Below, piece by piece: positions 2,155-59,606 of a stretch of DNA of 64,000 bases. The DNA comes from Alphaproteobacteria bacterium (lineage in GTDB: Bacteria > Pseudomonadota > Alphaproteobacteria > RF32 > CAG-239): positions 22,122 through 86,121 of the forward strand of contig JAFUSA010000025.1 in assembly GCA_017480745.1 (NCBI GenBank). Direction: 5' to 3'. The position numbers and the translations under genes are program-made. The notes beneath the pieces are model-generated. The model saw only the letters and a list, made by a program, of their open reading frames with translations. It was not told the origin of the DNA and made no database searches. How positions within the stretch are numbered: the stretch's first letter is position 1; the number at the start of each line of letters is the position of its first letter.

Positions 2155-2422
2155 TTGACATTTGAATTTTTTGTGCTATTATAAAATCAGAACTTCGGTT
2201 CGGAGCCTTAACAAGCTCGTAATATGTGCGGTGCATTTTGCATCGTTAAAATGACGTAATATATCTCCGATTTGGGTTGGGGAGCGTTCAATGGATGTTC
2301 AGGGCGGAAGCCTAAAGATTGGATGGATCATTTCACATATTATGGTTTGTTAACTCTCCCGACCGCCGTTTGGCGGTTGATTAGTTATTAACAACAATTT
2401 TTCTCAAGAAGGAGATTTAAAA
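2155..2422 (+). promoter_or_regulatory. Promoter plus structured 5' leader of prepilin-like paralog 1 (divergent member of the conserved leader family)
   Basis: TTGACA 2155-2160, 16-nt spacer, TGcTATTAT with -10 at 2177-2182. The leader has the family architecture: hairpin CTCC/GGAG (2264-2284), distal CTCTCCC 2354-2360, CCGCC-gttt-GGCGG 2363-2376, SD GGAGA 2411-2415. Confidence 0.6.
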
Positions 2423-3193
2423 ATGAAAACATATAAAACAGAATCCGGACGATCCATGATTGAAATGTTGGGCGTTTTGGCCATTATCGGCGTGTTGAGC
2501 GTGGGCGGTATCGCCGGATATTCAAAGGCGATGATGAAATATCGCATTAATAAATCCATTGAACAGATATCAATGATTGTTACCAATGTGCGCACTCTGT
2601 TTGGCAGCCAAAAGAATTATAAAGCTTTGGGAAATATCGGAACTTCTGATGCCACTAACGGCAATGGGAGTTTAATTGCCAAAGCCAAGTTATTTCCTGA
2701 TGAATTGTTAAACGGTACTACCGGTGTGGTTGATAATCCGAATCCGTTTGGTGGCAAAATTGAACTAATATATTCAGCACGCAATGCTGGTGATGAAAAG
2801 GCGTTTATGCTTATTTTTGACAGTATTCCGGAAGAAGCTTGTATGGATTTGGCAACTCAAAATTGGGGTTCTGCTTCCGGTTCCGGTTTGATTGCGATGG
2901 CAGTGGAACCCACAGCCGCTGCTGCCCCAGCAGCTGGAGGTAGTAGCGCAAGTGCTCCATCATCTGCTCCGTTGGAAGGTGCCGCAACACCTCAAGCTGG
3001 GACGGCTTTAACCACTCCTCTTGATGCTGTATATCAGGGTAAGTGCACTGATGCATCTGGAACGGGTTCATTAAAGGCAGCTTTAAGCGGTAAGATAAAA
3101 GGTGTTTGTGGCGGTCAAAATTCTATGAGTGCCAGTGATGCCGCTACGGCTTGTGAGGGTGATTCCAATACATTATATCTGAAATTTTACTAA
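2423..3193 (+). CDS. Prepilin-like protein (type IV pilin/pseudopilin-type N-terminal helix), paralog 1 of 7, with an Ala/Pro/Ser/Gly-rich low-complexity insert
   Basis: MKTYKTESG|RSMIEMLGVLAIIGVLSVGGIAGYSKAMMKYRINKSIEQI: Gly then Glu at +5 and a roughly 20-aa hydrophobic helix, as in class III signal peptides. Family motifs AKLFPDEL, PFGG and EEACMDLATQNW are present. Confidence 0.75.
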   Translation: MKTYKTESGRSMIEMLGVLAIIGVLSVGGIAGYSKAMMKYRINKSIEQISMIVTNVRTLFGSQKNYKALGNIGTSDATNGNGSLIAKAKLFPDELLNGTTGVVDNPNPFGGKIELIYSARNAGDEKAFMLIFDSIPEEACMDLATQNWGSASGSGLIAMAVEPTAAAAPAAGGSSASAPSSAPLEGAATPQAGTALTTPLDAVYQGKCTDASGTGSLKAALSGKIKGVCGGQNSMSASDAATACEGDSNTLYLKFY

Positions 3194-7003: not shown

Positions 7004-10000
7004 ATGCAAAAATCATTGTTTACAAGATTTATTTTAAGTACAACCGCACTATCGTTCAGTTTTGCCGTGTTCTATCCGTATAGTTCGCAAGCCGCCGGTT
7101 TGGCTCCGGTTTCTTTTGAAGCAATGTATAATTTGGCAAAAAGCGGGAATGTGCAAGCTCTACGTGCATCAGTGCGCCGCGGTATGAATATTGATGTTAT
7201 GGATTCGAACGGAGATACGGGGTTATGTATAGCAGCGCAAAATAATGATCACTACACATATAATGCTTTTCGCGCTGCCGGCGCTAATCCCAATCATCCA
7301 TGCGTGCAAAAAATTGACCATTATGAGGATTTTTTGGCATCATCAAAAACTGTTGCTCTCAATGCTACTCCGCGAGAGGCTTTTAGTGCCGTTGGTTTAG
7401 AAAATTTTCATTTTCAGCCTAATTGGTGGATTGTCGGTGGCGTTGTTTTGGCCGGCGGTGCCGCAGCTTTGGCACTTAGCAGCGGTGGCGGCGGTGGAAA
7501 AAGCTCCGGTGGAAGTGGTGGAGACGATAGTAAACCGAAAGAAGAATATAATAGTTTGGCTTCTAAGCTGGCGGTAAACGGCTCAATAAAAGATACTGTT
7601 GATTCAACAAGCAAGGCTAACAGTGCTCGAATAGACGTAACAAACAGCAATACTGCGCAAATAAATACTATTGACTTTACAAAAAGTGTTTTGGATTATG
7701 CCGGATATGTTAATGTAGGGTTAAATGCTAAAAACGGTGGAAAATACACCAATGAATCCGCCGGTGTGATATATCTTACTTCGGGTGCGGTAGGCATGAG
7801 CGCTTTAACCAATTCCGAGGTTGTGAACAATGGCTTTATTCATGCTGATGCCTATAACGGTACTATTGGTATGGTAGGCAGTCAAAAATCGGTGATTACT
7901 AACAATGCTGCTGGTATAATAGCCAATGTTAACGATTCTAAGGGAATTGATTTGAATTTTTCCGGTAAGGATGGAATTGACGCAGTTATAGGTATGTATG
8001 TTGATACCAATTCACAGGCGATAAACAACGGTGATATTCGCGGAACGGCAATTCAGGCATATAGTGCCGGCACAACAACATCAGATGCTTCAACTTCTAT
8101 TGTCGGCAATATAATCGGTATGGAAGCAATGATCTTGAATGCCGGAAACGATGTTGCCGGTAAAGAAATAATTTTAAGCAATAACGGATCCGGTAATATC
8201 AATATCAGTGCCGGTGATGGTGGTTCGGGAACAACGGTTAATTTAAATTCTATCGGTATGGGAAGCTTTTTGGATAACGCTTTCTTAAACGGCTCTAAAA
8301 ATATTAACCGTGCCGAAGTGGTAACCATTAACAATAATGGCAATATTTCTATTGCCTATACCGGAACATACAGCCCGACTTCGGATACCACGCTTCGCAA
8401 AGGCACGGGAGGCGTTGTCGGTATGCGAGCCGATGCTAATACTACGGCTAACAATAGCGGAAACATTAATTTAAACTTTTCTCAATACGGTTCTTCCTCA
8501 TCACAACAGGGAATAAGCGCGGGAATGCAGTCAATTCACGGTGCTAATTTAACTAACAGCGGTAATATAAACATAACAACCATTGCCACCAATCAACTCG
8601 GTAATTATGGTATGCTTTCCGTAGAGGGTAGCGGATCTGTTTCCGGACTTTATACCGACTTAAATCAAAAGTTGAGTAATACCGGAGAAATTATTGTTAA
8701 AGCCACTAACAGTTACGGTATGGCTTCTTATAACGGTGGAACTTTAAGTAACAGCAACCACATTGCCGTAGGCAGTGCAACTGATACGCAATATAACAAT
8801 AATGTGGCAATGTATGGTTCCGGTGAAGGCACACAGGTAACTTTAAGCAATACCGGAACTATTGATGTTTATTCGTATAATTCTTATGCGATGAAAAACG
8901 ATTTTGCCGGTGCGCAAACAATACAAAACGACGGAACGATTAATATAAATTATGAAGCGACAAATTCCAAAGTTTTTGGAGGATATTATAGCTATGCCAT
9001 AAATAACGGACTTATCAACTATTATATAACGTCCGGCGGTAGTATGTCTGGAAGCGGAACAGATGCCGATGATCCTTTTTCCGAATATACTTTACAAGTT
9101 TCTCAATCTGTTTTGACTACGGAAAATTCTTCAACCTCTTCTTCAACTACGGAACTATTAACTAATAACAGTGGCAAAAACATAAATATTTACGGTTCGT
9201 CTTTTACTTCCGGTATGAGTATTATGTCTGCACGCGGTCAGGCTGAGAATTTAGGAACTATCAATCTTTTTCCGTATAGCGATAATTCCGAGTCAAATTC
9301 GGTTGTTATGTATATGGGGGACGACGGAATTAGCAGCGCAGCAATTCTTAATAGTGGAACAATTAACACAAGTTCCAATATGTCGGCGGCAATGGCCAGT
9401 GATTCATCACAAAATTCCCGCGTTATTAACTATGGAACCATTAATACTTCTAAGCCATATTCTATCGGGCTCTATGCCTCAGGTAGAAGTGTGTTAAATA
9501 ATTATGGTATTATAAAAATGAATGCTTCTGAAAGTGTTGGTGTGTATTCATCAGGTCCATCAAATATAATCAATACCGGCACTATAACCATCGGTTCTGC
9601 CGGCAATTCGCAGACATCGGTTTTCGGACTATATTCCAAAGGTGCGAACATTTCAATTACCAACGGAGATGATAGCGGAGTAGCCGCCGCTATAAATGTT
9701 TATGCAACAGGAAAACATAATGCAGGTATCTATGCCTCCGGAGATTACAATGTTGTATATAACAAATCCGGAGCCGTTATCGGCGGTAGTATATATAACG
9801 GTATTTCAATAACCGGAGCCAACAATACGGCGGTTAATTACGGCACGATCAGTGGTGTAGAAAACGGTATTTTCTCAGACGGTGAGAAAGCAACCATTGT
9901 AAACAGTGGGCTTATTACGGCAAGTACCTACGGAATACAAGCCAAACAAAGCGGTAGCAATATTACAAACAATGGCACTATAACTTCGGCAGATACAGGT

Positions 10001-11656
10001 ATTTGGGCTTATGCCGAGGGAACATCGGAAGAAGAAAAAACAACCATTACCAATAACGGCACTATCACGGCGCCTACCGGTATTTATGTTAAAATTGCTT
10101 CACCGGATGTTTATTTGGATGTTAAAAATAACGGCGCCATAAATTCCACATCTTACCAAGTACACACCTATGGTGAATATGAAAAACCATTAGAACCTGA
10201 TGAAGATTTTGATAAAAATATTAGTGTTATCGGAGCGAGTAATTGGTATAAAGAATATGAATCATACGAGAAAGAAACCCAAACAGCAGAAACAGCATTT
10301 AGAATACCTGCAAAACGTAATTGGAACTTCATCAATAACGGAACATATTATTCTGCCACAGCGTTAAACTTTGATAATTCGTTCTTCAATTTTGTTTTGG
10401 ATGAAAATGCGTCTTATGTTGCTCCGGCTTTAAGCGGAACAGTAAATTTGGCTGATAACGTGGTATCATCCGGTTTTGAAAATGAATATGCGGTTAAAAA
10501 TGCTTTTGTCGGAGCCAATAAAGGTATTGTACTTAATAACAATTTATACATGTTTGAAAATACTTTGCGCGAAAATTCATCCGGCGCCTTAGATGCCGTT
10601 GCCACTATGCGTGATTTCGGAGAATTGATGAAAAATCAATCGTTGGCTAAATATTTGTCGGCAAACTATCAACAACAGAATAACGAAAATTTATATTCCG
10701 CGCTCAAAACAACGCGTAGTGCAGCTGCGTTTGATGCTGTAATAAATAAAAAATTCGCCCTTGATTTTGTGCCTAATTTAGCCAAACAAAATTTGGATAA
10801 TATGCAAATTATCGATCGTGAAATAAATGATGAATTGTTAGAAAAAACTTATTTGCCTAAGAGGTATTCGGTTAAAGTTGTTAGCTATAAAAAAGATGTT
10901 GACGGTAAACATGAAATAAGCGGATATAAAGATAAGGTAACATCGGTTTATGGATTCGGCGATCACTATTTGGGGCATAATATGCGTGGCGGTTACGGAT
11001 TAAACGTTACGCGTAGCGACAGTGATTTTGATAACGATTCTTCTCGCTATAACAATGTTGTAGAAGCGTTTGCTCCTGTTTTGTGGAACAAGGCGGATAC
11101 TTCGGCTTTGGTTAAATTAAAAGCAGGTTTCGGACGCGGACATTATCGTCGCATCGGATTAAATAACGCTCCGCATAAAATGCAAACCAAAGAGTATTAT
11201 TATGGATTTGATACTGATTTTCGCCATGATTTTGACTTAGGAGCATTAGTTTTGGAACCGCATATCGGTTTTGACACAACCGCTATGTATATGGATAATT
11301 CAGGCGAAAGCAACGGTGGTTTGAAATTAAAAGACGAAAATATTGTTTCGGCAAAGTCTGTAATTGGTCTGAAGCTGAAAAAAAGTTTTGATTTTAACTA
11401 TAATCAGTCGCTTGATTTGAGTGCCGGTGGAACATATTATCACGAATTTGGTAATAAATATCGTCAGTCGGTTGCCGCAGATGGAATGAGCGGTGTTTAT
11501 GAAATTGCCGATGGTCGTATGCAACGCAATTTCGGTTTGCTCAATATGAAAGCCAAATATCAATATAAGCAATTTTCGTTAGGTGTATCGGCAAATGCAC
11601 CTCTTGAACAGAAAAATAACGCTTATTATATGCTTGATTTAGGGTATAAATTTTAA
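7004..11656 (+). CDS. Autotransporter outer membrane protein with a large repetitive passenger and a C-terminal beta-barrel
   Basis: 1550 aa. Signal peptide MQKSLFTRFILSTTALSFSFAVFYPYSSQA. The Asn/Gly/Ser/Thr-rich passenger repeats N-x-G-x-I motifs. The last ~280 aa show alternating beta-strand patterns and end in ...YMLDLGYKF (terminal Phe). Confidence 0.8.
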   Translation: MQKSLFTRFILSTTALSFSFAVFYPYSSQAAGLAPVSFEAMYNLAKSGNVQALRASVRRGMNIDVMDSNGDTGLCIAAQNNDHYTYNAFRAAGANPNHPCVQKIDHYEDFLASSKTVALNATPREAFSAVGLENFHFQPNWWIVGGVVLAGGAAALALSSGGGGGKSSGGSGGDDSKPKEEYNSLASKLAVNGSIKDTVDSTSKANSARIDVTNSNTAQINTIDFTKSVLDYAGYVNVGLNAKNGGKYTNESAGVIYLTSGAVGMSALTNSEVVNNGFIHADAYNGTIGMVGSQKSVITNNAAGIIANVNDSKGIDLNFSGKDGIDAVIGMYVDTNSQAINNGDIRGTAIQAYSAGTTTSDASTSIVGNIIGMEAMILNAGNDVAGKEIILSNNGSGNINISAGDGGSGTTVNLNSIGMGSFLDNAFLNGSKNINRAEVVTINNNGNISIAYTGTYSPTSDTTLRKGTGGVVGMRADANTTANNSGNINLNFSQYGSSSSQQGISAGMQSIHGANLTNSGNINITTIATNQLGNYGMLSVEGSGSVSGLYTDLNQKLSNTGEIIVKATNSYGMASYNGGTLSNSNHIAVGSATDTQYNNNVAMYGSGEGTQVTLSNTGTIDVYSYNSYAMKNDFAGAQTIQNDGTININYEATNSKVFGGYYSYAINNGLINYYITSGGSMSGSGTDADDPFSEYTLQVSQSVLTTENSSTSSSTTELLTNNSGKNINIYGSSFTSGMSIMSARGQAENLGTINLFPYSDNSESNSVVMYMGDDGISSAAILNSGTINTSSNMSAAMASDSSQNSRVINYGTINTSKPYSIGLYASGRSVLNNYGIIKMNASESVGVYSSGPSNIINTGTITIGSAGNSQTSVFGLYSKGANISITNGDDSGVAAAINVYATGKHNAGIYASGDYNVVYNKSGAVIGGSIYNGISITGANNTAVNYGTISGVENGIFSDGEKATIVNSGLITASTYGIQAKQSGSNITNNGTITSADTGIWAYAEGTSEEEKTTITNNGTITAPTGIYVKIASPDVYLDVKNNGAINSTSYQVHTYGEYEKPLEPDEDFDKNISVIGASNWYKEYESYEKETQTAETAFRIPAKRNWNFINNGTYYSATALNFDNSFFNFVLDENASYVAPALSGTVNLADNVVSSGFENEYAVKNAFVGANKGIVLNNNLYMFENTLRENSSGALDAVATMRDFGELMKNQSLAKYLSANYQQQNNENLYSALKTTRSAAAFDAVINKKFALDFVPNLAKQNLDNMQIIDREINDELLEKTYLPKRYSVKVVSYKKDVDGKHEISGYKDKVTSVYGFGDHYLGHNMRGGYGLNVTRSDSDFDNDSSRYNNVVEAFAPVLWNKADTSALVKLKAGFGRGHYRRIGLNNAPHKMQTKEYYYGFDTDFRHDFDLGALVLEPHIGFDTTAMYMDNSGESNGGLKLKDENIVSAKSVIGLKLKKSFDFNYNQSLDLSAGGTYYHEFGNKYRQSVAADGMSGVYEIADGRMQRNFGLLNMKAKYQYKQFSLGVSANAPLEQKNNAYYMLDLGYKF

Positions 11657-11728: not shown

Positions 11729-12469
11729 TTATTTTAACCTTGTTTTCCACGGTTCAGCGTTTACGTCTATATCAAAATAAAATCCTACATCATCTATGTA
11801 TCTATCAGCACAATACTTAACAGCATTATCTACCGTTACCGGCGTTTTCAAATACGTTCCGCGATTAGTTCCATCAACCACAAAAATTGCCGCAACATTA
11901 GCGTTAGTCCAATCTTGTGATACTAATTCAATACAGGCTTCATCAGATTCTATTTCATACGACATCTTAAAAGCTTTGTTTTGTTCTGTTGATGATTTAT
12001 CAATAGAATAAAGTGAAAATCCACCGCCAAAAGCATTGGTAGTATCTGCTCTCGATCGCGATCCCATAGGTCCCTCAGATATATTACTCAACATTTCATC
12101 GGGAAGAAGTTTTGCCTTAATTACCACCGGACAGTCTACGTCACAATACGCTCCTTCATAACTTCTTTGCGGAGCAAAAAATGCTCGCACATTGCCGGCA
12201 ATTAAAGTTATCTGCTCGATAGTTTTGTTAATGCGATACTTCATCACTGCTTTGGAATATCCGGCGATTCCGCCAACGCTTAACACACCGATAATTGCCA
12301 GCACGCCAAGCATCTCTATCATGCTTCTTCCGCATTGCGGCGCATCTGCTTGTCTGTTTTTCGCTGGTGTACTGTCTGTGTACACGGCACTCAAAACGGC
12401 CGGCGCATCTGCACCACTCTTCGGAAGAAGTGAACGACCATTTTCATTTTCTAAATCAAAGTTTCTCAT
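11729..12469 (-). CDS. Prepilin-like protein, paralog 2 of 7 (47-aa leader peptide)
   Basis: MRNFDLENENGRSLLPKSGADAPAVLSAVYTDSTPAKNRQADAPQCG|RSMIEMLGVLAIIGVLSVGGIAGYSKAVMKYRINKTIEQITLIAGNVRAFF. Family motifs KAKLLPDEM, AFGGG and EACIELVSQDW are present. Confidence 0.75.
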   Translation of the reverse strand: MRNFDLENENGRSLLPKSGADAPAVLSAVYTDSTPAKNRQADAPQCGRSMIEMLGVLAIIGVLSVGGIAGYSKAVMKYRINKTIEQITLIAGNVRAFFAPQRSYEGAYCDVDCPVVIKAKLLPDEMLSNISEGPMGSRSRADTTNAFGGGFSLYSIDKSSTEQNKAFKMSYEIESDEACIELVSQDWTNANVAAIFVVDGTNRGTYLKTPVTVDNAVKYCADRYIDDVGFYFDIDVNAEPWKTRLK

Positions 12470-12715
12470 AGTAAACTTCCTTTCATTAAAGTTGTTGTTT
12501 TAATATTAAAATTGCCGCCTCATGAGGCGGCTGGAAGTTCAAAGCTATTATAAGTTAAATAGTGTAGCTTATTAAAACATGTTCTATTCGGCTACCTTCC
12601 AGCCATGCTGGAAAATTTTTACGTCCTTAAAGACGAACTTATAAGAGGCTTTGAAACCCCAGATGACTTTTACCTCATCTTATACTTGTTATACCATAAA
12701 AAGTTCAAAAGTCAA
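12470..12715 (-). promoter_or_regulatory. Promoter plus conserved structured 5' leader of paralog 2
   Basis: On the minus strand: TTGACT (12715-12710), N16, TGgTATAAC (-10 at 12693-12688). Leader hairpins are AGATGA/TCATCT, CGTC/GACG, TTCCAGC/GCTGGAA and GCCGCC-tcatga-GGCGGC (12514-12531), followed by AAAGGAAGTTTACT-ATG. Confidence 0.7.
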
Positions 12716-18525: not shown

Positions 18526-18769
18526 TTGACTTCTGTATTTTTTGTGGTATAGTTAAAATCAAGATGAGGTAACTTGTCTGAGGTGTCGAAACCTCTTGTA
18601 TGTTCGTCTTTTATAGACGTTAATTTTCCGGCAATGGTCGGAAGGTTGCAAAATAAAGCATGTGCTAATATGCGACACTATTTAACATACAGTAGTTTCG
18701 AACTTCCGGCCGCCTCAGTAGGCGGTTGTTTTAATGTAATTCAACAACAAACATGAAAGGAAGTTTACT
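18526..18769 (+). promoter_or_regulatory. Promoter plus conserved structured 5' leader of paralog 3
   Basis: TTGACT 18526-18531, N16, TGgTATAGT (-10 at 18548-18553). Hairpins are GAGGT/ACCTC, CGTC/GACG, TTCCG/CGGAA and CCGCC-tcagta-GGCGG (18710-18725) followed by TTGTTTT, then AAAGGAAGTTTACT-ATG. Confidence 0.7.
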
Positions 18770-19417
18770 ATGAGAAACTTTGAAATTAAAAATAATGCTT
18801 CTCTCTCCCTTTGCGGGCGAGGAAGCCAGTATGGTCGTTCTATGATTGAGATGCTTGGCGTGCTTGCCATAATCGGCGTTTTAAGTGTTGGCGGTATCGC
18901 CGGATATTCAAAAGCCATGACCAAATATCGTATCAACAAAACTATTGAGCAAATAACTTTAATTGCCGGAAATGTGCGAGCATTTTTTGCCTCGCAAAGA
19001 AGTTATGAAGGATTAAATAATAGTGATGTTATCAAAAAAGCCAAACTTGTGCCCGAAGAGATGATAGAAGATCGTGGTGAGTATATAGAAATAATAAACG
19101 CTTTTGGAGGCAGTTGTTATTTGGATACTTATGACAACAATAAATCTTTTGGCTTTTCCTGTTATGGAATATCGGAAGAAGCATGTATTGAATTACTTTC
19201 TTTTGATTGGAGTGCTACAAATGCCAACGGAGCTATCTTATGTACGAATAATGGCCCTGAGTATGATTATTATTTACGTTTGCCCATAGATTTAGATAAA
19301 GCCGTAACGTATTGTCATAAAGCTTTTGAAGAAGCGGACTCTGATGATTTGTTTGTTTTGGGATTAACGTTTGATTTAGATAAAAATTCAGATTTATGGA
19401 AGAACACGTATAAATAG
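18770..19417 (+). CDS. Prepilin-like protein, paralog 3 of 7 (22-aa leader peptide)
   Basis: MRNFEIKNNASLSLCGRGSQYG|RSMIEMLGVLAIIGVLSVGGIAGYSKAMTKYRINKTIEQITLIAGNVRAFF. Family motifs KKAKLVPEEM, AFGG and EEACIELLSFDW are present. Confidence 0.78.
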   Translation: MRNFEIKNNASLSLCGRGSQYGRSMIEMLGVLAIIGVLSVGGIAGYSKAMTKYRINKTIEQITLIAGNVRAFFASQRSYEGLNNSDVIKKAKLVPEEMIEDRGEYIEIINAFGGSCYLDTYDNNKSFGFSCYGISEEACIELLSFDWSATNANGAILCTNNGPEYDYYLRLPIDLDKAVTYCHKAFEEADSDDLFVLGLTFDLDKNSDLWKNTYK

Positions 19418-19652: not shown

Positions 19653-19729
<77 letters not shown>

Positions 19730-23949: not shown

Positions 23950-24816
23950 TCAATCAACCCAATCACGATCTTTCCAGTATTCTGAATTAGGATCTACATC
24001 GAAATAAAAGCATAGCTGTGCATAATCAGGATTGGATTTCATTACTTCTGCACATTTTTCAGTGGCTTTATCTACCGGAATCGGCAGAGATTTAAAGTAA
24101 CGACTAATATCTTCGTCATAAAGATCCACTACAGTAATCTTAGCTTCGGCCCAATCTTGGCTTAACAGTTCAATACAGGCTTCTACATTATCTCCAATGT
24201 AGTAATTAATAAAAAATGCCTGATTATCACCTTCTTTGGATTTATCTTCTGTATATAACTCAACCCCATAGCCAAAAGGATTGGTGATAGACATAATCTT
24301 GCCATCAGTTACGGTAATCATCTCATCAGGGAATATTTTGGCTTTTTTAACTATCGGACAGCCATTGGCAGCCGAGATTAAAAGTCCGTATGGATTAACG
24401 CTGGAATGCCCAGAGCAACCGGGGGCGTCGCAAGTGCCATCACGTCCCGTATTACTGCAACGCACCCCGATATAATTCTTCTGCGGTGCAAAGAAAGAGC
24501 GCACATTGCCGGCAATTAGGGTTATTTGCTCTATTGCTTTATTGATTCTATATTTTTGCATGGCTTTGGAATAGCCGGCTATACCGCCCACCGAAAGAAC
24601 ACCAATTATTGCCAACACACCTAGCATCTCAATCATGCTTCTCCCGTATTGCAGCACATCTGCTTGTATGTTTTTCGCTGGTGTACTGTCTGTGTACACG
24701 GCACTCAAAACAGTCGGCGCATCTGCACCACTCTCCGGAAGAAGTGTAAGACCTGATTGGCTCTCTTTCCCGCAAGGGGCGAGAGAATCATTATTTTTTA
24801 TTTTTAGGTTTATCAT
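23950..24816 (-). CDS. Prepilin-like protein, paralog 4 of 7 (58-aa leader peptide, Cys-rich C-terminal class)
   Basis: MINLKIKNNDSLAPCGKESQSGLTLLPESGADAPTVLSAVYTDSTPAKNIQADVLQYG|RSMIEMLGVLAIIGVLSVGGIAGYSKAMQKYRINKAIEQI. The block KKAKIFPDEMITVTDGKIMSITNPFG is shared with paralogs 5 and 7. Confidence 0.78.
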   Translation of the reverse strand: MINLKIKNNDSLAPCGKESQSGLTLLPESGADAPTVLSAVYTDSTPAKNIQADVLQYGRSMIEMLGVLAIIGVLSVGGIAGYSKAMQKYRINKAIEQITLIAGNVRSFFAPQKNYIGVRCSNTGRDGTCDAPGCSGHSSVNPYGLLISAANGCPIVKKAKIFPDEMITVTDGKIMSITNPFGYGVELYTEDKSKEGDNQAFFINYYIGDNVEACIELLSQDWAEAKITVVDLYDEDISRYFKSLPIPVDKATEKCAEVMKSNPDYAQLCFYFDVDPNSEYWKDRDWVD

Positions 24817-25059
24817 AGTAAACTTCCTTTCACTTAATTAATTGTTTTAACACCAAAATAACCGCCCACTGAGGCGGCCGGAAGCGCAAACTATCTAACA
24901 TGATATAGTGCAGGTTATTTGATTACTCTTATTCACCCACCTTCCAGCCATAGCCGGAAATATTTAACGTCTCTATATGACGCATGTTAGAGAGGCTTGC
25001 GACCCCAGACAAGTTACCTCGTCTTGCTTTTACTATACCATAGAAAAATCAAAAGTCAA
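24817..25059 (-). promoter_or_regulatory. Promoter plus conserved structured 5' leader of paralog 4
   Basis: On the minus strand: TTGACT (25059-25054), N16, TGgTATAGT (-10 at 25037-25032). Hairpins are AGAC/GTCT, GGGGT/GCCTC, CGTC/GACG, TTCCGGC/GCTGGAA and CCGCC-tcagtg-GGCGG (24862-24877), followed by AAAGGAAGTTTACT-ATG. Confidence 0.7.
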
Positions 25060-29988: not shown

Positions 29989-30066
29989 TTATTTACGCCG
30001 ATTAACATTGCATCTGCCGCTGAGAAATATATCTGCCGGCAGATGCTTTTTTCTTAATAAAAATGT

Positions 30067-30306
30067 TTGACTTTTATTTTTTTTGTGATATAGTAAACTC
30101 ATGATGAGGTAACTTGTCTGAGGTGTGACAACCTCTTTTTCACTCGCTTTTAAAGAGCGTTATTTTTCCGGTGTTGACCGGAAGGTTGCGGAATAGATTT
30201 CAATACGCAACACTATTCAGTGAAAAGTAGTTGTCAACTTCCGGCCGCCTCAGTGGGCGGTTAATTTTGTAATGAAATAACTAATTTGATGAAAGGGAAG
30301 TTTACT
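30067..30306 (+). promoter_or_regulatory. Promoter plus conserved structured 5' leader of paralog 5 (reference copy for the helix coordinates)
   Basis: TTGACT 30067-30072, N16, TGaTATAGT (-10 at 30089-30094). P1 30120-30135, P2 30145-30159, P3 30166-30183, P4 30186-30210, P5 30212-30231, distal CTTCCGG 30238-30244, CCGCC-tcagt-GGGCGG 30245-30260 followed by TTAATTTTG, SD GGAAGT 30296-30301. Confidence 0.72.
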
Positions 30307-31041
30307 ATGGAAAACTTAAAAATAAAAAATATAAATTGCCACGCTGCACTCGCAATGACAAAAAATGCGCAGAGTGGTCGTTCAATGATAGAGATGTTGG
30401 GAGTTCTTGCTATAATTGGTGTGCTTTCGGTGGGCGGAATCGCCGGATACAGCAAGGCAATGATGAAGTATCGTATTAACAAAACGATAGAACAAATAAC
30501 TCTTATTGCCGGTAATATTCGTGCCTTTTGGGGACCACAGAAGAATTATGATGGAGTGCGTTGTAGTAGTAATTTTCATGGCACTTGCGAGGCCTCCGGT
30601 TGCATGGGTGTTTCCGGCGTTGATGCAGACGGAAATTCTACCTCTGCTTACAATGGCTGTCCGATAGTTAAAAAAGCCAAAATATTCCCTGATGAAATGA
30701 TTACCGTAACTGATGGTAAGATTATGTCTATTACCAATCCTTTTGGTGGTGGGGTTTGGTTAGGAACACGGGATAAAGCCAAAGGCGGTGATAATCAGGC
30801 GTTTTACATCAATTATACTATTGGAGATAATGAAGAAGCATGTATTGAGTTAGCAACTCATGATTGGAGCAATGCCGGAGCTTCTATAATCAATATTAAT
30901 GACTCTTATGTTAGCAAAACTCCTGCGGATTTAGAAATTGCCACGCAATATTGTAGTGATGGAGATGATAATGACATATGGTTATATTTTGATGTAGATG
31001 CCAACTCAACTTATTGGACTGCACAATTAGGCGAACGTTAG
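30307..31041 (+). CDS. Prepilin-like protein, paralog 5 of 7 (24-aa leader peptide, Cys-rich C-terminal class)
   Basis: The start is set at ATG 30307 by homology (the track start at 30286 is TTG inside the RBS). MENLKIKNINCHAALAMTKNAQSG|RSMIEMLGVLAIIGVLSVGGIAGYSKAMMKYRINKTIEQI; also KKAKIFPDEMITVTDGKIMSITNPFGG and EEACIELATHDW. Confidence 0.78.
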   Translation: MENLKIKNINCHAALAMTKNAQSGRSMIEMLGVLAIIGVLSVGGIAGYSKAMMKYRINKTIEQITLIAGNIRAFWGPQKNYDGVRCSSNFHGTCEASGCMGVSGVDADGNSTSAYNGCPIVKKAKIFPDEMITVTDGKIMSITNPFGGGVWLGTRDKAKGGDNQAFYINYTIGDNEEACIELATHDWSNAGASIININDSYVSKTPADLEIATQYCSDGDDNDIWLYFDVDANSTYWTAQLGER

Positions 31042-37229: not shown

Positions 37230-37319
37230 GGAGAGATGGCAGAGCGGTTTAATGCAGCGGTCTTGAAAACCGTCGAGGGGGCGACCCCTCCAAGAGTTCG
37301 AATCTCTTTCTCTCCGCCA
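37230..37319 (+). tRNA. tRNA-Ser (anticodon TGA)
   Basis: GGAGAGATGGCAGAGCGGTTTAATGCAGCGGTCTTGAAAACCGTCGAGGGGGCGACCCCTCCAAGAGTTCGAATCTCTTTCTCTCCGCCA: 90 nt with a long variable arm, anticodon loop CTTGAAA and encoded CCA. Confidence 0.9.
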
Positions 37320-50303: not shown

Positions 50304-50954
50304 TTAATAAAAAGTATGCTCAAATGTTTCAGTTCCATCAAAAGATAAAAATAGATATTCTCTTGTTCGATTAGAGCAGATAGTTTGTGCCACAGCTATA
50401 TCCGGAGTTGACATACAGTTTGGATTTGGCGCGTATGCACAAATATATTTTGCACCTGTGGCAGACCAATCTTGACTCATTAAATCAATACACGCTTCTT
50501 CCGGTACCTCATCATAATATATACAAAAATACCCTTTGCCTTGATCAACTTGATTTTCATTGCTGTGTGCAAATCCAGTCAAATCGACATTTCCACCGAA
50601 TGGATTAGTCATAGCGGTAATATTGCCATCTGAATCCAAAGTTAACATTTCATCCGGCACAAGTTTGGCTTTTTTAATTATTGTCATTTTATCATTACTA
50701 TTCAAATCTGCGTAACTTCTCTGATTTGCAAAAAATGTATGAATATTACCGGCAATGAGAGTTATTTGCTCAATGGTTTTGTTAATGCGATACTTCATCA
50801 TTGCTTTGCTATATCCGGCGATTCCACCAACGCTCAAAACACCGATAATTGCTAAAACACCCAACATCTCAATCATTGAACGACCGCTCTGCACGCTTTT
50901 CGTCATTGCGAGCGCAGCGTGGCAATCATTATTTTTTATTTCTAAGTTTCTCAT
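50304..50954 (-). CDS. Prepilin-like protein, paralog 6 of 7 (24-aa leader peptide)
   Basis: MRNLEIKNNDCHAALAMTKSVQSG|RSMIEMLGVLAIIGVLSVGGIAGYSKAMMKYRINKTIEQITLIAGNIHTFF. Family motifs KKAKLVPDEM, NPFGG and EEACIDLMSQDW are present. Confidence 0.78.
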   Translation of the reverse strand: MRNLEIKNNDCHAALAMTKSVQSGRSMIEMLGVLAIIGVLSVGGIAGYSKAMMKYRINKTIEQITLIAGNIHTFFANQRSYADLNSNDKMTIIKKAKLVPDEMLTLDSDGNITAMTNPFGGNVDLTGFAHSNENQVDQGKGYFCIYYDEVPEEACIDLMSQDWSATGAKYICAYAPNPNCMSTPDIAVAQTICSNRTREYLFLSFDGTETFEHTFY

Positions 50955-51192
50955 AATAAACTTCCTTTCATTTTTGTTGTTATTACATTAAAATAACCGC
51001 CCACTGAGGCGGTCGGAAGTTGAAAGCTATTACAACATAAATAGTGTCGCATATTAGTACAAACCTATTCTGCAACCTTCCGACCGTAGTCGGAAATTTA
51101 ACGCCTTTAAGGCGATGTTGTAAGAGGCTTTCAAACCTCAGACAAGTTACCTCATCATGAGTTTACTATACCATAAAAAATCTAAAAGTCAA
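50955..51192 (-). promoter_or_regulatory. Promoter plus conserved structured 5' leader of paralog 6
   Basis: On the minus strand: TTGACT (51192-51187), N16, TGgTATAGT (-10 at 51170-51165). Hairpins are GAGGT/GCCTC, CGCC/GGCG, TTCCGAC/GTCGGAA, distal CTTCCGAC and CCGCC-tcagtg-GGCGG (50997-51012), followed by AAAGGAAGTTTATT-ATG. Confidence 0.7.
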
Positions 51193-58693: not shown

Positions 58694-58940
58694 TTGACTT
58701 TAAAAAAAATATATGATAATACAAGAATAAGATGAGGTGAAAATCATCTGGGGTCTGAAAACCTCTCAATTTGCGTCAGTAAAAGACGTTAAAATCGTTT
58801 CCGACTAAGGTTGGAAGGTGGGTGAATAAGAGAAATTAAATAACTCACACTATTCAAATTGATAGTTTTCAGCTTCCAGCCGTCTTATCTGGCGGCAATT
58901 TTGGTATTAAAACAACTAATTTAATGAAAGGAAGTTTACT
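58694..58940 (+). promoter_or_regulatory. Promoter plus conserved structured 5' leader of paralog 7
   Basis: TTGACT 58694-58699 and TGaTAATAC around 58714-58722. Hairpins are AGATGA/TCATCT, GGGGT/ACCTC, CGTC/GACG, TTCCGAC/GTTGGAA, distal CTTCCAGC and GCCGTC-ttatct-GGCGGC (58879-58896), followed by AAAGGAAGTTTACT-ATG. Confidence 0.7.
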
Positions 58941-59606
58941 ATGAGAAACTTTGAAATAAAAAATAATGATTCTCTCTCCCGCAAAGGACGAGGGAGCCAG
59001 ACTGGTCGTTCAATGATAGAAATGTTGGGCGTTCTTGCTATCATTGGTGTTTTGAGTGTTGGTGGAATTGCCGGATATTCAAAGGCAATGATGAAATATC
59101 GCATCAATAAAACCATTGAGCAAATAACACTAATTGCCGGTAATGTGCGTGCCTTTTGGGGACCACAGAAGAATTATATCGGGGTGAGTTGTTCTGGATA
59201 TAATTGCAAAGCCTCCGGTTGCTCTGGGCAATCTTCCGGTGATGGCTGCCCTATACATAAAAAAGCCAAAATATTCCCTGATGAAATGATTACTGTAACT
59301 AATGGTAAGATTATGTCTATTACCAATCCTTTTGGTGGAGAGGTTAATTTATATTCAGTAGTGAAATCTCAAAGCGGTGATATGCAGGCGTTTGTAATGG
59401 AATCCCTATTACCTCAAGAAGCATGTATTGAGTTAGCAACTCATGATTGGAGTAGTGCCGGAGTTAACGCAATCTCTATTAATGGTCCTGTACCATTAAT
59501 AACACCGCCAGTAGATTTAAATTTCGCCACAGATAATTGCTTTGATGGTTATAACGAGATACGTTTACATTTTGGTATAGATGTCAATTCTAATTTTTGG
59601 AAATAA
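58941..59606 (+). CDS. Prepilin-like protein, paralog 7 of 7 (22-aa leader peptide, Cys-rich C-terminal class)
   Basis: MRNFEIKNNDSLSRKGRGSQTG|RSMIEMLGVLAIIGVLSVGGIAGYSKAMMKYRINKTIEQITLIAGNVRAFW. Motifs KKAKIFPDEMITVTNGKIMSITNPFGG and QEACIELATHDW are present. Confidence 0.78.
   Translation: MRNFEIKNNDSLSRKGRGSQTGRSMIEMLGVLAIIGVLSVGGIAGYSKAMMKYRINKTIEQITLIAGNVRAFWGPQKNYIGVSCSGYNCKASGCSGQSSGDGCPIHKKAKIFPDEMITVTNGKIMSITNPFGGEVNLYSVVKSQSGDMQAFVMESLLPQEACIELATHDWSSAGVNAISINGPVPLITPPVDLNFATDNCFDGYNEIRLHFGIDVNSNFWK

Follow-up and report, generated by a model that had tools for sequence, protein, structure and literature searches.

Phage 'immunity' RNA modules are the closest described systems to the element that we describe here, a structured leader that lies upstream of pilin genes in uncultured gut bacteria. 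The C4 RNA of phages P1 and P7 is processed by RNase P and accumulates as a small RNA; Citron and Schuster, in 1990, are said to have traced the heteroimmunity of these two phages to short variable segments that set specificity; and sRNA-Xcc1 (Rfam RF02221) is an 88-nt RNA of Xanthomonas integron cassettes that occurs as well on plasmids and in prophages (Stx, Rac and others). The c4 and c4-a1b1 RNAs are recognised motifs (PMC2864571), a passage in PMC8198154 that cites Citron & Schuster 1990 has C4 required to keep the antirepressor off, and sRNA-Xcc1 has been seen as an 88-nt species on Northern blots (PMC2996969). At the IsrK locus (STnc1160) of the Salmonella Gifsy-1 prophage, read-through of a terminator within the leader yields an mRNA in an inactive long-range structure, which a short RNA converts in trans to an active one; the P4 CI RNA brings about premature termination by pairing with two sites, one upstream and one downstream (PMC4825925). 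We have analysed a 64,000-nt stretch of an Alphaproteobacteria bacterium (lineage RF32; CAG-239; assembly GCA_017480745.1, contig JAFUSA010000025.1, positions 22,122 to 86,121 of the forward strand), referred to below as the window, in which seven pilin genes each follow such a leader. In our reading, which we hold with some reserve, the leader is probably a cis-acting RNA of the phage C4/sRNA-Xcc1/IsrK kind that has been taken over by chromosomal genes. By their predicted structure, the leaders are a new chromosomal, multi-copy variant of the antisense-RNA leader module, one that lies outside current Rfam families.

Exactly seven prepilin motifs (GRSMIEMLGVLAI, or, written as a signature, …GRSMIEMLGVLAIIGVLSVGGIAGYSKAM…) occur in the window, and the leader stands 5' of all seven genes. 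Each gene is preceded by the same unit, comprising TTGAC(T/A), a spacer of 16-17 nt, a TGnTATAGT-like box, the leader of ~210 nt, and AAAGGAAGTTTACTATG; aligned (alignment A1), the seven window units have a mean column identity of 70%, which bears out the order of promoter, leader and start codon that an earlier, sequence-only reading of this DNA had proposed for all seven genes. Copy 5, on the forward strand, serves as our example. From -35 box to ATG it occupies 30067-30309, and our full-length covariance model, R1, matches it at 30118-30268 with 120.5 bits. Its promoter consists of TTGACT (30067-30072) and, with a TG extension, TATAGT (30089-30094), and its Shine-Dalgarno (SD) sequence GGAAGUU and start codon lie at 30296-30309, ahead of a pilin gene at 30307-31041. 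Promoter-like hexamers end 25-28 nt ahead of hairpin P1 in 42 of the 62 well-matching leaders listed, from which transcription is predicted to start at hairpin P0 (GAUGAG/CUUGUC with a GUAA loop, 30103-30118), the predicted 5' end of the transcript. P0 itself covaries (columns 26:35, GC12/AU6; columns 27:34, AU7/GC5). A leader peptide (ATGATGAGGTAA), or the mini-ORF ATG ATG AGG TAA within P0 (30101-30112; copies 5 and 6), was considered and dropped, as it is unconserved in the other copies and in relatives.

Homologues of the leader were found at 13 or more loci in metagenome-assembled genomes (MAGs) of gut and rumen Alphaproteobacteria. A protein-guided scan with one genome per species returned pilin loci solely from uncultured gut and rumen Alphaproteobacteria MAGs, and nhmmer together with the covariance model placed the leader 5' of 22 of the 80 pilin loci found in other genomes; among these leaders are members of two divergent subfamilies, GGAUG/CAUCC and GGGGAG/CUCCC. 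The claim of the sequence-only reading that the leader precedes every prepilin-like gene is thus right for the window (7/7) and wrong elsewhere, where the leader is missing from most pilin loci and is also found before non-pilin genes. A scan of metagenomes with a DNA pattern gave at least 120 stretches and, from these, at least 115 distinct leaders; the same pattern had 0 matches in the viral contigs scanned. Statistics on more than 100 leaders (codes, terminator, folds and context) rest on the window, MAG and metagenome matches listed. For covariation we used two alignments: A6, a MAFFT alignment of 73 distinct leaders, and A7, a model-guided alignment that includes subfamilies found independently of the search pattern. 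Some contigs hold two leaders close together, for example L093 (1194-1264 and 1459-1545) and L179 (296 and 2712); in L093 a second sRNA-Xcc1-like match lies ~200 nt past the first leader, and no open reading frame (ORF) was found between.

The leader fold is real and under selection. Copy 5 folds with z = -5.0 against dinucleotide shuffles, and segmentation without an alignment recovers a uniform 5' part (P0; CUGRGGU-G-a-CCUC(U)-b; P2; P3; P4) and a 3' part that reads CACUAU, 0-3 nt, b', (G)UA, a', (A) and CUUCCRRY, followed by a GC-rich hairpin with a U-run, ~45 nt, the SD and ATG. The letters a, b, a' and b' stand for variable strands that form two long-range helices: strand a, in the 'loop' of P1, pairs with a', just 5' of CUUCC, and strand b, in the spacer between P1 and P2, pairs with b', the 'loop' of P5. 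In copy 5 these covarying strands are a (UGACAAC, 30126-30132) with a' (GUUGUCA, 30230-30236) and b (UUUUCACU, 30137-30144) with b' (30219-30226). Elsewhere in the window a/a' reads, for example, CGCAA/UUGCG, and b/b' examples from the window are UUACAACAU/AUGUUGUAA, UUAUAAGUU/AACUUAUAA and CUAACAUG/CAUGUUAG. The longest exact Watson-Crick run that a' and b' make with their own upstream region averages 6.7 and 7.5 nt, as compared with 4.3 and 4.5 nt with the upstream regions of other leaders. The codes are diverse (at least 35 distinct a and at least 68 distinct b sequences), and in the seven window copies they are mutually orthogonal, with self pairings of 5-9 bp and cross pairings of at most 5 bp. 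Pairing in a:a' reaches 97-98%, four of its positions show 3-4 standard pair types, and double changes occur in 9/9 pairs of b:b'.

The shorter hairpins covary as well. P1 (GAGGU/ACCUC, 30120-30135; 94.8% paired) encloses strand a, corresponds to the a1 hairpin of C4-type modules and becomes GAGC/GCUC or GGAGU/ACUCC in divergent members; P2 (30145-30159; 93% paired) is followed by a U-rich run, and all five of its pairs covary; P4 (30185-30211; 98% paired) carries a conserved AAUA/AAUA internal loop and is the most striking helix (105:146, CG36/UA33; 106:145, GC33/AU32); and P5 (CUAU/GUAG, 30212-30231), which covaries and has b' as its loop, becomes CCGU/ACGG or CUG/CAG in divergent members. 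For the nested structure (a:a', b:b', P2, P3, P4, P4a and terminator), 91.8% of cells in A6 are paired, versus 78.1% after column shuffles and 36-47% when partners are slid by 1-3 columns, and double-change cells number 547 where 164 are expected; for the alternative structure (P1, P5 and helix H, described below) the values are 94.7% versus 84.9% shuffled and 32-46% slid, with 357 double-change cells against 98 expected. None of 500 shuffles reached an observed value. G.U pairs are frequent on the sense strand in P1, P3, P4 and the terminator, evidence for an RNA transcribed in the same direction as the gene. Here the sequence-only reading fared well in part: it had described a leader of ~200 nt with compensatory changes, as the covariation in A6 and the shuffle test confirm, and its copy-5 positions for P1 to P5 and the terminal hairpin agree with the sequence. 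The stretches that it drew as the loops of P1 and P5 are strands of a:a' and b:b', the most strongly covarying helices, and it missed the second partner of the P3 3' arm, the terminator and the pairing of the SD. A fold in which P1, a:a', P5 and b:b' form simultaneously as a double pseudoknot is possible; the linker before b' is longer where b:b' is longer (r = 0.53). A candidate helix between the P1 5' arm and the anti-SD (GRGGU:ACUUC) was rejected, its 97% 'pairing' coming via G.U pairs and invariant bases only, with no double changes. In some metagenome leaders (L142, L162, L141, L166, L175 and L187) the P2 loop (GUGCA-like) is complementary to the P2-P3 spacer (UGCAC-like), with joint changes in both segments (CGUGCAA/UUGCACG, GCGCA/UGCGC, GCAUC/GAUGC). 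An additional pseudoknot is suggested; it is absent from the window copies, whose P2 loops are short.

One strand of the leader has two partners. The 3' arm of P3 (RCUGGAAGG; in copy 5 the SD-like CCGGAAG at 30178-30184) can pair with the P3 5' arm (UUCCGG, 30166-30171; local P3 90-95% paired) or with CUUCCAGY, which lies past a' and abuts the terminal hairpin, to give helix H. Both partners covary. RNAalifold on 23 sequences prefers H, which in A6 is 99.7% paired, and the three of its pairs not fixed by the search pattern covary (AU33/GC32/GU7; UA57/CG9/AU3); local P3 is 90% paired in A6, with 10-15 non-pairs at each of three central positions. In A7 both H and P3 covary, H switching among GGAAG:CUUCC, GGAUG:CAUCC and GGGAG:CUCCC and P3 showing double changes at six pairs. 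The 3' strand of H, AACUUCCGG (30236-30244), overlaps the base of the next hairpin, such that columns 183-184, the last two of H, are also the bottom two pairs of that hairpin; both sets covary. By its sequence the hairpin (GGCCGCC/GGCGGUU with a UUAAUUUUG tail, 30243-30269) is intrinsic-terminator-like: 6/6 of its pairs covary in A6, and a hairpin with at least 4 U occurs in 108 of the 122 leaders listed, with a median of 8 U in the 9-nt tail. The P2 hairpin was considered as a general early terminator and rejected, given that its stem is weak (median -5.2 kcal/mol) and that a T4 run follows it in just a quarter of copies (26 of the 100 leaders listed); in copy 5 the P2 site is flagged as terminator-like.

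The H 3' strand and its 5' neighbours (AACUUCC) are also complementary to the SD, in copy 5 at 30296-30302. The SD is an unusual one: GGAAGU stands ahead of 6/6 leader genes in the window and 0/41 other genes, and GGAAGT ahead of 42 of the 89 leader-associated genes listed (12/36 of the non-pilin genes) as compared with 10 of 1117 controls. Moreover, anti-SD and SD change together across subfamilies (CUUCC/GGAAG, ACAUCC/GGAUGU, UCUCC/GGAGA, GAACUCC/GGAGUUC). At minimum free energy, copy 5 is predicted to form a:a', b:b', P2, local P3 and P4 together with the terminator and AACUUCC:SD, and among the 101 leaders listed the nested optimum contains P3 in 83, the terminator in 92 and H in none.

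How does this leader relate to known RNAs? At gathering score no Rfam family matched in the window or at 18 further loci, in line with the sequence-only reading, which recognised no riboswitch or leader class in it, c-di-GMP (cyclic di-GMP) classes included. Its further suggestion of a novel cis-regulatory RNA does not hold in the sense of a wholly new class: the 3' domain is a diverged three-way junction of sRNA-Xcc1 type, and the upstream a and b strands are the counterparts of a1/b1 in C4, IsrK and sRNA-Xcc1. In a permissive Rfam scan of 15 small loci, RF02221 matched repeatedly and exactly from GGAAGG to CUUCC, with the alignment in register: the closing helix of sRNA-Xcc1 falls on H, its first hairpin (AAUA on both sides of an internal loop) on P4, its second hairpin on P5, and its 6-nt junction on a'. 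As a reference we used seven true sRNA-Xcc1 loci (69-78 bits; a Neisseria record, an Aeromonas record, a Nitratidesulfovibrio plasmid, a Pseudomonas plasmid, two Stx-type phages and Rac-SA53) that hold eight elements. A covariance model of the gut leaders' three-way junction only, R2, finds 8/8 of these elements at their exact coordinates (16-32 bits; E 3.5e-6 to 0.03).

The resemblance extends beyond the junction. About 100 nt upstream, the true sRNA-Xcc1 loci have a GAGG…CCUC-type hairpin with a loop complementary to the junction, followed by a strand complementary to the loop of the second hairpin; Rac-SA53 reads CTGAGGCGTCGAAACCTCTT, and the corresponding window copy 3 CTGAGGTGTCGAAACCTCTT. 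Some or most of the seven have a hairpin directly 3' of the closing helix and, 32-46 nt further on, a same-strand gene for an antirepressor, a BRO-family protein or a hypothetical protein. Leaders and sRNA-Xcc1 thus share a closing helix whose 5' strand is SD-like and whose 3' strand is anti-SD-like (GGGAGG:CCUCCC in sRNA-Xcc1, GGAAGG:CUUCC in the leaders), an AAUA/AAUA first hairpin, a second hairpin and a 6-7-nt junction, with detection reciprocal, as well as the upstream a1 hairpin and b1, the hairpin after the closing helix and the nearby gene on the same strand. They differ in that most true loci carry second copies of the strands (a2/b2) over the ribosome-binding site (RBS) of the downstream gene, and sRNA-Xcc1 has an ACCA-like tail. 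Both are missing from the leaders, in which the terminator stem (CCGCC / UGCC) adjoins H directly and leaves no ACCA or other NCCA-like tail. The sRNA-Xcc1 loci also have a strong hairpin with U7 after b1 and a ~45 nt spacer, and lie on mobile elements before genes of antirepressor, BRO or symE type; the leaders possess a long P3 5' arm, replace the CACCA…UGGUG hairpin with a canonical terminator, and are chromosomal, in many copies, before genes for pilins and surface proteins. The leader therefore has an output stage and a gene set distinct from those of the known modules.

As for sRNA-Xcc1 itself, it now resembles the centre of a C4-type cis/trans leader that carries a1/b1 and, in most loci, a2/b2, and RF02221 is indicated, as a by-product of this work, as the core of such a leader before antirepressor, BRO and symE genes. 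It stands outside the Rfam C4 clan (CL00128) and is usually described as a trans-acting virulence sRNA. Among the true elements (set L203-L209), L209:1380-1660 and L206:1090-1320 are examples with upstream a1/b1; one Stx-type phage (L207) has two elements in tandem (960-1049 and 1499-1584), and the other (L208) has c4-a1b1, isrK and C4 (746-941) and, 600 nt later, sRNA-Xcc1 (1499-1582). Two PLSDB 'plasmid' records, NZ_CP119140.1 (L203) and NZ_AP026896.1 (L204), are 2.2 Mb and 4.9 Mb long and probably chromosomes; L203 has a second weak match to R1 and R2 at 1318-1495.

An arrangement characteristic of C4, an upstream a1 in a hairpin loop and a b1 that are complementary to a junction a' and a loop b', is present in the leaders. 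In common with c4 of P1 and P7 they have the closing helix, a hairpin, a hairpin with b' as its loop, junction strand a' and an upstream a1 in a hairpin loop followed by b1, and in both the specificity lies in short variable pairing segments. Unlike C4, which represses via a2/b2 over the RBS of icd, the leaders have no such target, and they lack the phage or mobile-element immunity context (ant, icd, BRO). At gathering scores of 45 and 46.7 bits, RF01695 (C4) and RF03163 (c4-a1b1) had no match in the window, in copy 5 or at the related loci scanned; as a positive control both were found in L208 (74.3 and 50.1 bits), together with isrK (RF01394). IsrK resembles the leaders in having one promoter and an RNA in which the 5' segment makes long-range pairs with structured sequence further downstream; in both, as predicted in the case of the leaders, two alternative folds set the downstream RBS open or closed and a terminator within the leader splits transcripts into short and long. 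The IsrK terminator follows a1/b1, whereas the strong terminator of the leaders follows the three-way junction; an IsrK-like short RNA is possible for the window copies, and not as a general feature of leaders. The P4 CI RNA (seqA, seqC), likened here by its published description, is similar as a processed leader RNA with a complementary upstream site and an effect on premature termination, and dissimilar in that the leaders have no downstream seqC-like site. Finally, the c-di-GMP-II riboswitch before C. difficile pilA1 is likewise a pilin-gene leader with a pseudoknotted fold, a terminator and competing helices, yet the fold of our leaders is related to antisense-RNA modules; scans with c-di-GMP-I and -II (RF01051, RF01786) gave no match at gathering score, nor at E<=10 or E<=1. 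A literature search for a pilin-associated RNA motif in gut Alphaproteobacteria found nothing.

The genes served are not only pilins. The start codon usually lies 45-65 nt past CUUCC on the same strand, and about two thirds of the downstream genes among the leaders listed are pilins; about 35% of metagenome leaders precede non-pilin genes, which encode lipoproteins (a PEGA-domain and an SNase-domain protein among them), an outer-membrane beta-barrel protein, glycosyltransferases (GT92/GT2, RgpF, Gly_transf_sug) and XRE-type regulators. The leader thus serves a set of surface-protein genes and is not pilin-specific. Taken together, these leaders amount to a large and well-supported RNA family absent from Rfam, with more than 120 distinct copies of ~165 nt each that contain pseudoknots, a terminator and an anti-SD, and the family appears to regulate genes for pilins and other surface proteins in uncultured Alphaproteobacteria of gut and rumen. 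It seems that chromosomal gene control has taken over phage 'immunity' RNA modules (C4, IsrK, sRNA-Xcc1) in many orthogonal copies. Dozens of natural orthogonal RNA-RNA address pairs on one scaffold should also be useful to those who study or engineer RNA switches.

We propose that the leader would work as follows. A sigma-70-type promoter would start transcription at P0; the 5' part (P1 with strand a, then b, then P2) would be the a1/b1 segment, and the 3' part a C4-like three-way junction made up of H, P4, P5 with its b' loop and junction strand a'. The private a and b helices would 'lock' this junction to its own 5' strands. Output would then be set by the strands of H: the SD-like 5' strand (CUGGAAGG) may pair with CUUCCAGY or with the P3 5' arm, and the 3' strand overlaps the two bottom terminator pairs and complements the unusual SD, GGAAGUU. 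As to the direction of the switch, we infer that with H closed the terminator would be weakened and the SD free, turning the gene on, and that with P3 formed the terminator would be complete and the SD of read-through transcripts masked, turning the gene off; the default nested fold would be the 'off' form. The switch might be thrown by RNA processing, by a short trans-acting RNA made from that very leader (IsrK-like), by a protein or by a ligand; the first two are suggested by analogy with the relatives.

Several observations weigh against this proposal, or against the kinship on which it builds. The a2/b2 targets are missing: a' and b' show complementarity of 4.2 and 4.3 nt to their own downstream 95 nt and of 4.2 and 4.4 nt to non-self ones, and with a2/b2 absent, the repression mechanism of C4 and sRNA-Xcc1 is not simply transferable to the leaders. 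RF02221 scores relatives at 38.9, 33.4, 30.1 and 29.0 bits, short of its gathering score of 53, and gives no match on window copy 5 at E<=10; in the other direction, full-length R1 aligns in register to the true sRNA-Xcc1 loci and does not detect them (9 bits, E = 0.12). The overlap between H and the terminator is just 2 bp and the U-tracts of the window copies are interrupted (UUAAUUUU), and so control of termination may be weak. Helix H crosses a:a' and b:b', i.e. it is pseudoknotted with them, and for this reason energy models cannot rank the two states. Regarding the sample, the metagenome pattern fixed GGAAGG, AATR, AATA, CACTAW and CTTCC, which makes those positions invariant by construction, and many of the leader sequences come from related strains.

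Might the leader instead sense a metabolite or second messenger, for example as a new riboswitch of c-di-GMP type in which a pseudoknotted junction aptamer drives the terminator and anti-SD? The fold is large and pseudoknotted, nucleotides of the junction and internal loop are nearly invariant, and a conserved aptamer followed by a classical terminator and anti-SD platform is the architecture that such a switch would have; furthermore, there are many copies per genome before genes for pili, adhesin-like lipoproteins, outer-membrane proteins and glycosyltransferases, a gene set that resembles c-di-GMP regulons. On the other hand, no riboswitch family matched in the Rfam scans, the downstream genes do not form one metabolic pathway, the covarying helices are for the most part hypervariable 'address' helices and not a conserved pocket, and the fold is related to C4, sRNA-Xcc1 and IsrK, which work by RNA-RNA pairing with no known ligand (PMC4825925). 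We give the riboswitch a slim chance. More improbable still is a constitutive 5' untranslated region that, like that of ompA, would stabilise or process mRNAs for envelope proteins with no switching; the downstream genes do encode abundant surface proteins, and the stable 5' hairpin P0 and compact fold would suit such a role, but mutually exclusive covarying partners, a terminator within the leader and a segment that sequesters the SD are not expected of a pure stabiliser. The similarity might also be no more than what recent duplication or gene conversion of the pilin cassettes has left behind, devoid of RNA function. The higher conservation of the leader and of the first 60 codons, relative to the remaining pilin gene, is what one would then see, and yet we regard this explanation as next to impossible: it is refuted by the covariation statistics, hypervariable segments having kept their complementarity across more than 100 copies; G.U pairs are confined to the sense strand; and the leader also precedes unrelated genes.

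The relatives themselves raise another prospect, namely that the terminated leader or a processed junction is a stable small RNA that acts on other mRNAs in trans, a mode of action that has been claimed for sRNA-Xcc1 and C4, its position before genes being secondary. An intrinsic terminator does follow the structured domain, and C4, once processed by RNase P, accumulates as a small RNA. A small RNA also accumulates from sRNA-Xcc1 (88 nt, PMC2996969), and IsrK acts in trans (PMC4825925). But the sole single-stranded 'seeds', a' and b', find their full complement in a and b of the same leader and are different in each copy; action in cis is indicated by the orientation, by the co-varying anti-SD:SD and by the distance of 45-65 nt to the start codon; and H lacks the NCCA-like tail that follows it in sRNA-Xcc1. 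Such an RNA has, in our estimation, a modest chance at best. The preferred reading, a cis-acting module of the C4/sRNA-Xcc1/IsrK kind, can also be taken one step further: with orthogonal, private a/b codes, short or terminated leader RNAs could act in trans, in the manner of IsrK, solely on mRNAs from their own locus, which would make the leaders 'self-addressed' switches derived from a phage immunity module and would allow one gene at a time to be expressed. This extension is a long shot. If true, each pilin or surface-protein gene would receive feedback, positive or negative, from its own RNA and be expressed stochastically, and uncultured gut Alphaproteobacteria would have an RNA-only analogue of phase or antigenic variation.

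Turning to the remaining copies, copy 1 (2155-2425, forward strand; R1 17.7 bits) belongs to the divergent GGGGAG/CUCCC subfamily and has its strands at 2207-2214 (a), 2219-2228 (b), 2334-2343 (b') and 2347-2354 (a'). Copies 3 and 7 are also on the forward strand, copy 3 at 18526-18772 (129.4 bits; a 18586-18592, b 18597-18604, b' 18684-18691, a' 18695-18701) and copy 7 at 58694-58943 (121.1 bits; a 58755-58762, b 58766-58773, b' 58855-58862, a' 58865-58872). The reverse strand carries copy 2 at 12467-12715 (129.4 bits; a 12648-12655, b 12636-12644, b' 12548-12556, a' 12538-12545), copy 4 at 24814-25059 (104.2 bits; a 24997-25001, b 24983-24990, b' 24895-24902, a' 24885-24889) and copy 6 at 50952-51192 (129.0 bits; a 51127-51134, b 51115-51123, b' 51030-51038, a' 51020-51027).

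The pilin proteins of the window match the PilS N-terminal and Bundlin Pfam families and are, by these matches, type IVb-like. Their first ~60 mature residues are almost the same and the remainder diverges, and at these loci the N-terminal 60 codons and the leader are more conserved than the remaining gene. Between the pilin genes lie genes for NusA, IF-2, glycogen phosphorylase (GlgP), HydG and an RND pump, on the basis of which we take the window to be chromosomal. Two of the pilins, at 12332-12469 and 24646-24816 (both reverse strand), have long N-terminal leader peptides, with ~45-57 residues ahead of the GRSMIE cleavage motif and a common SGADAP.VLSAVYTDSTPAKN insert; in metagenome relatives (L134, L167 and L174) the leader peptides exceed 150 residues. 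A 1550-aa ORF with no NCBIfam match (7004-11656, forward strand) adjoins pilin copy 2, and tRNA genes lie at 19656-19729 (reverse strand) and 37230-37316 (forward strand), the second with a long variable arm. Just 5' of the copy-5 promoter, at 30027-30055 on the forward strand, the palindrome ATCTGCCGGCAGAT is followed by a T-run and has a weak porB RNA match on the opposite strand; it is probably the terminator of the preceding gene, and an invertible promoter at copy 5 was set aside on that account.

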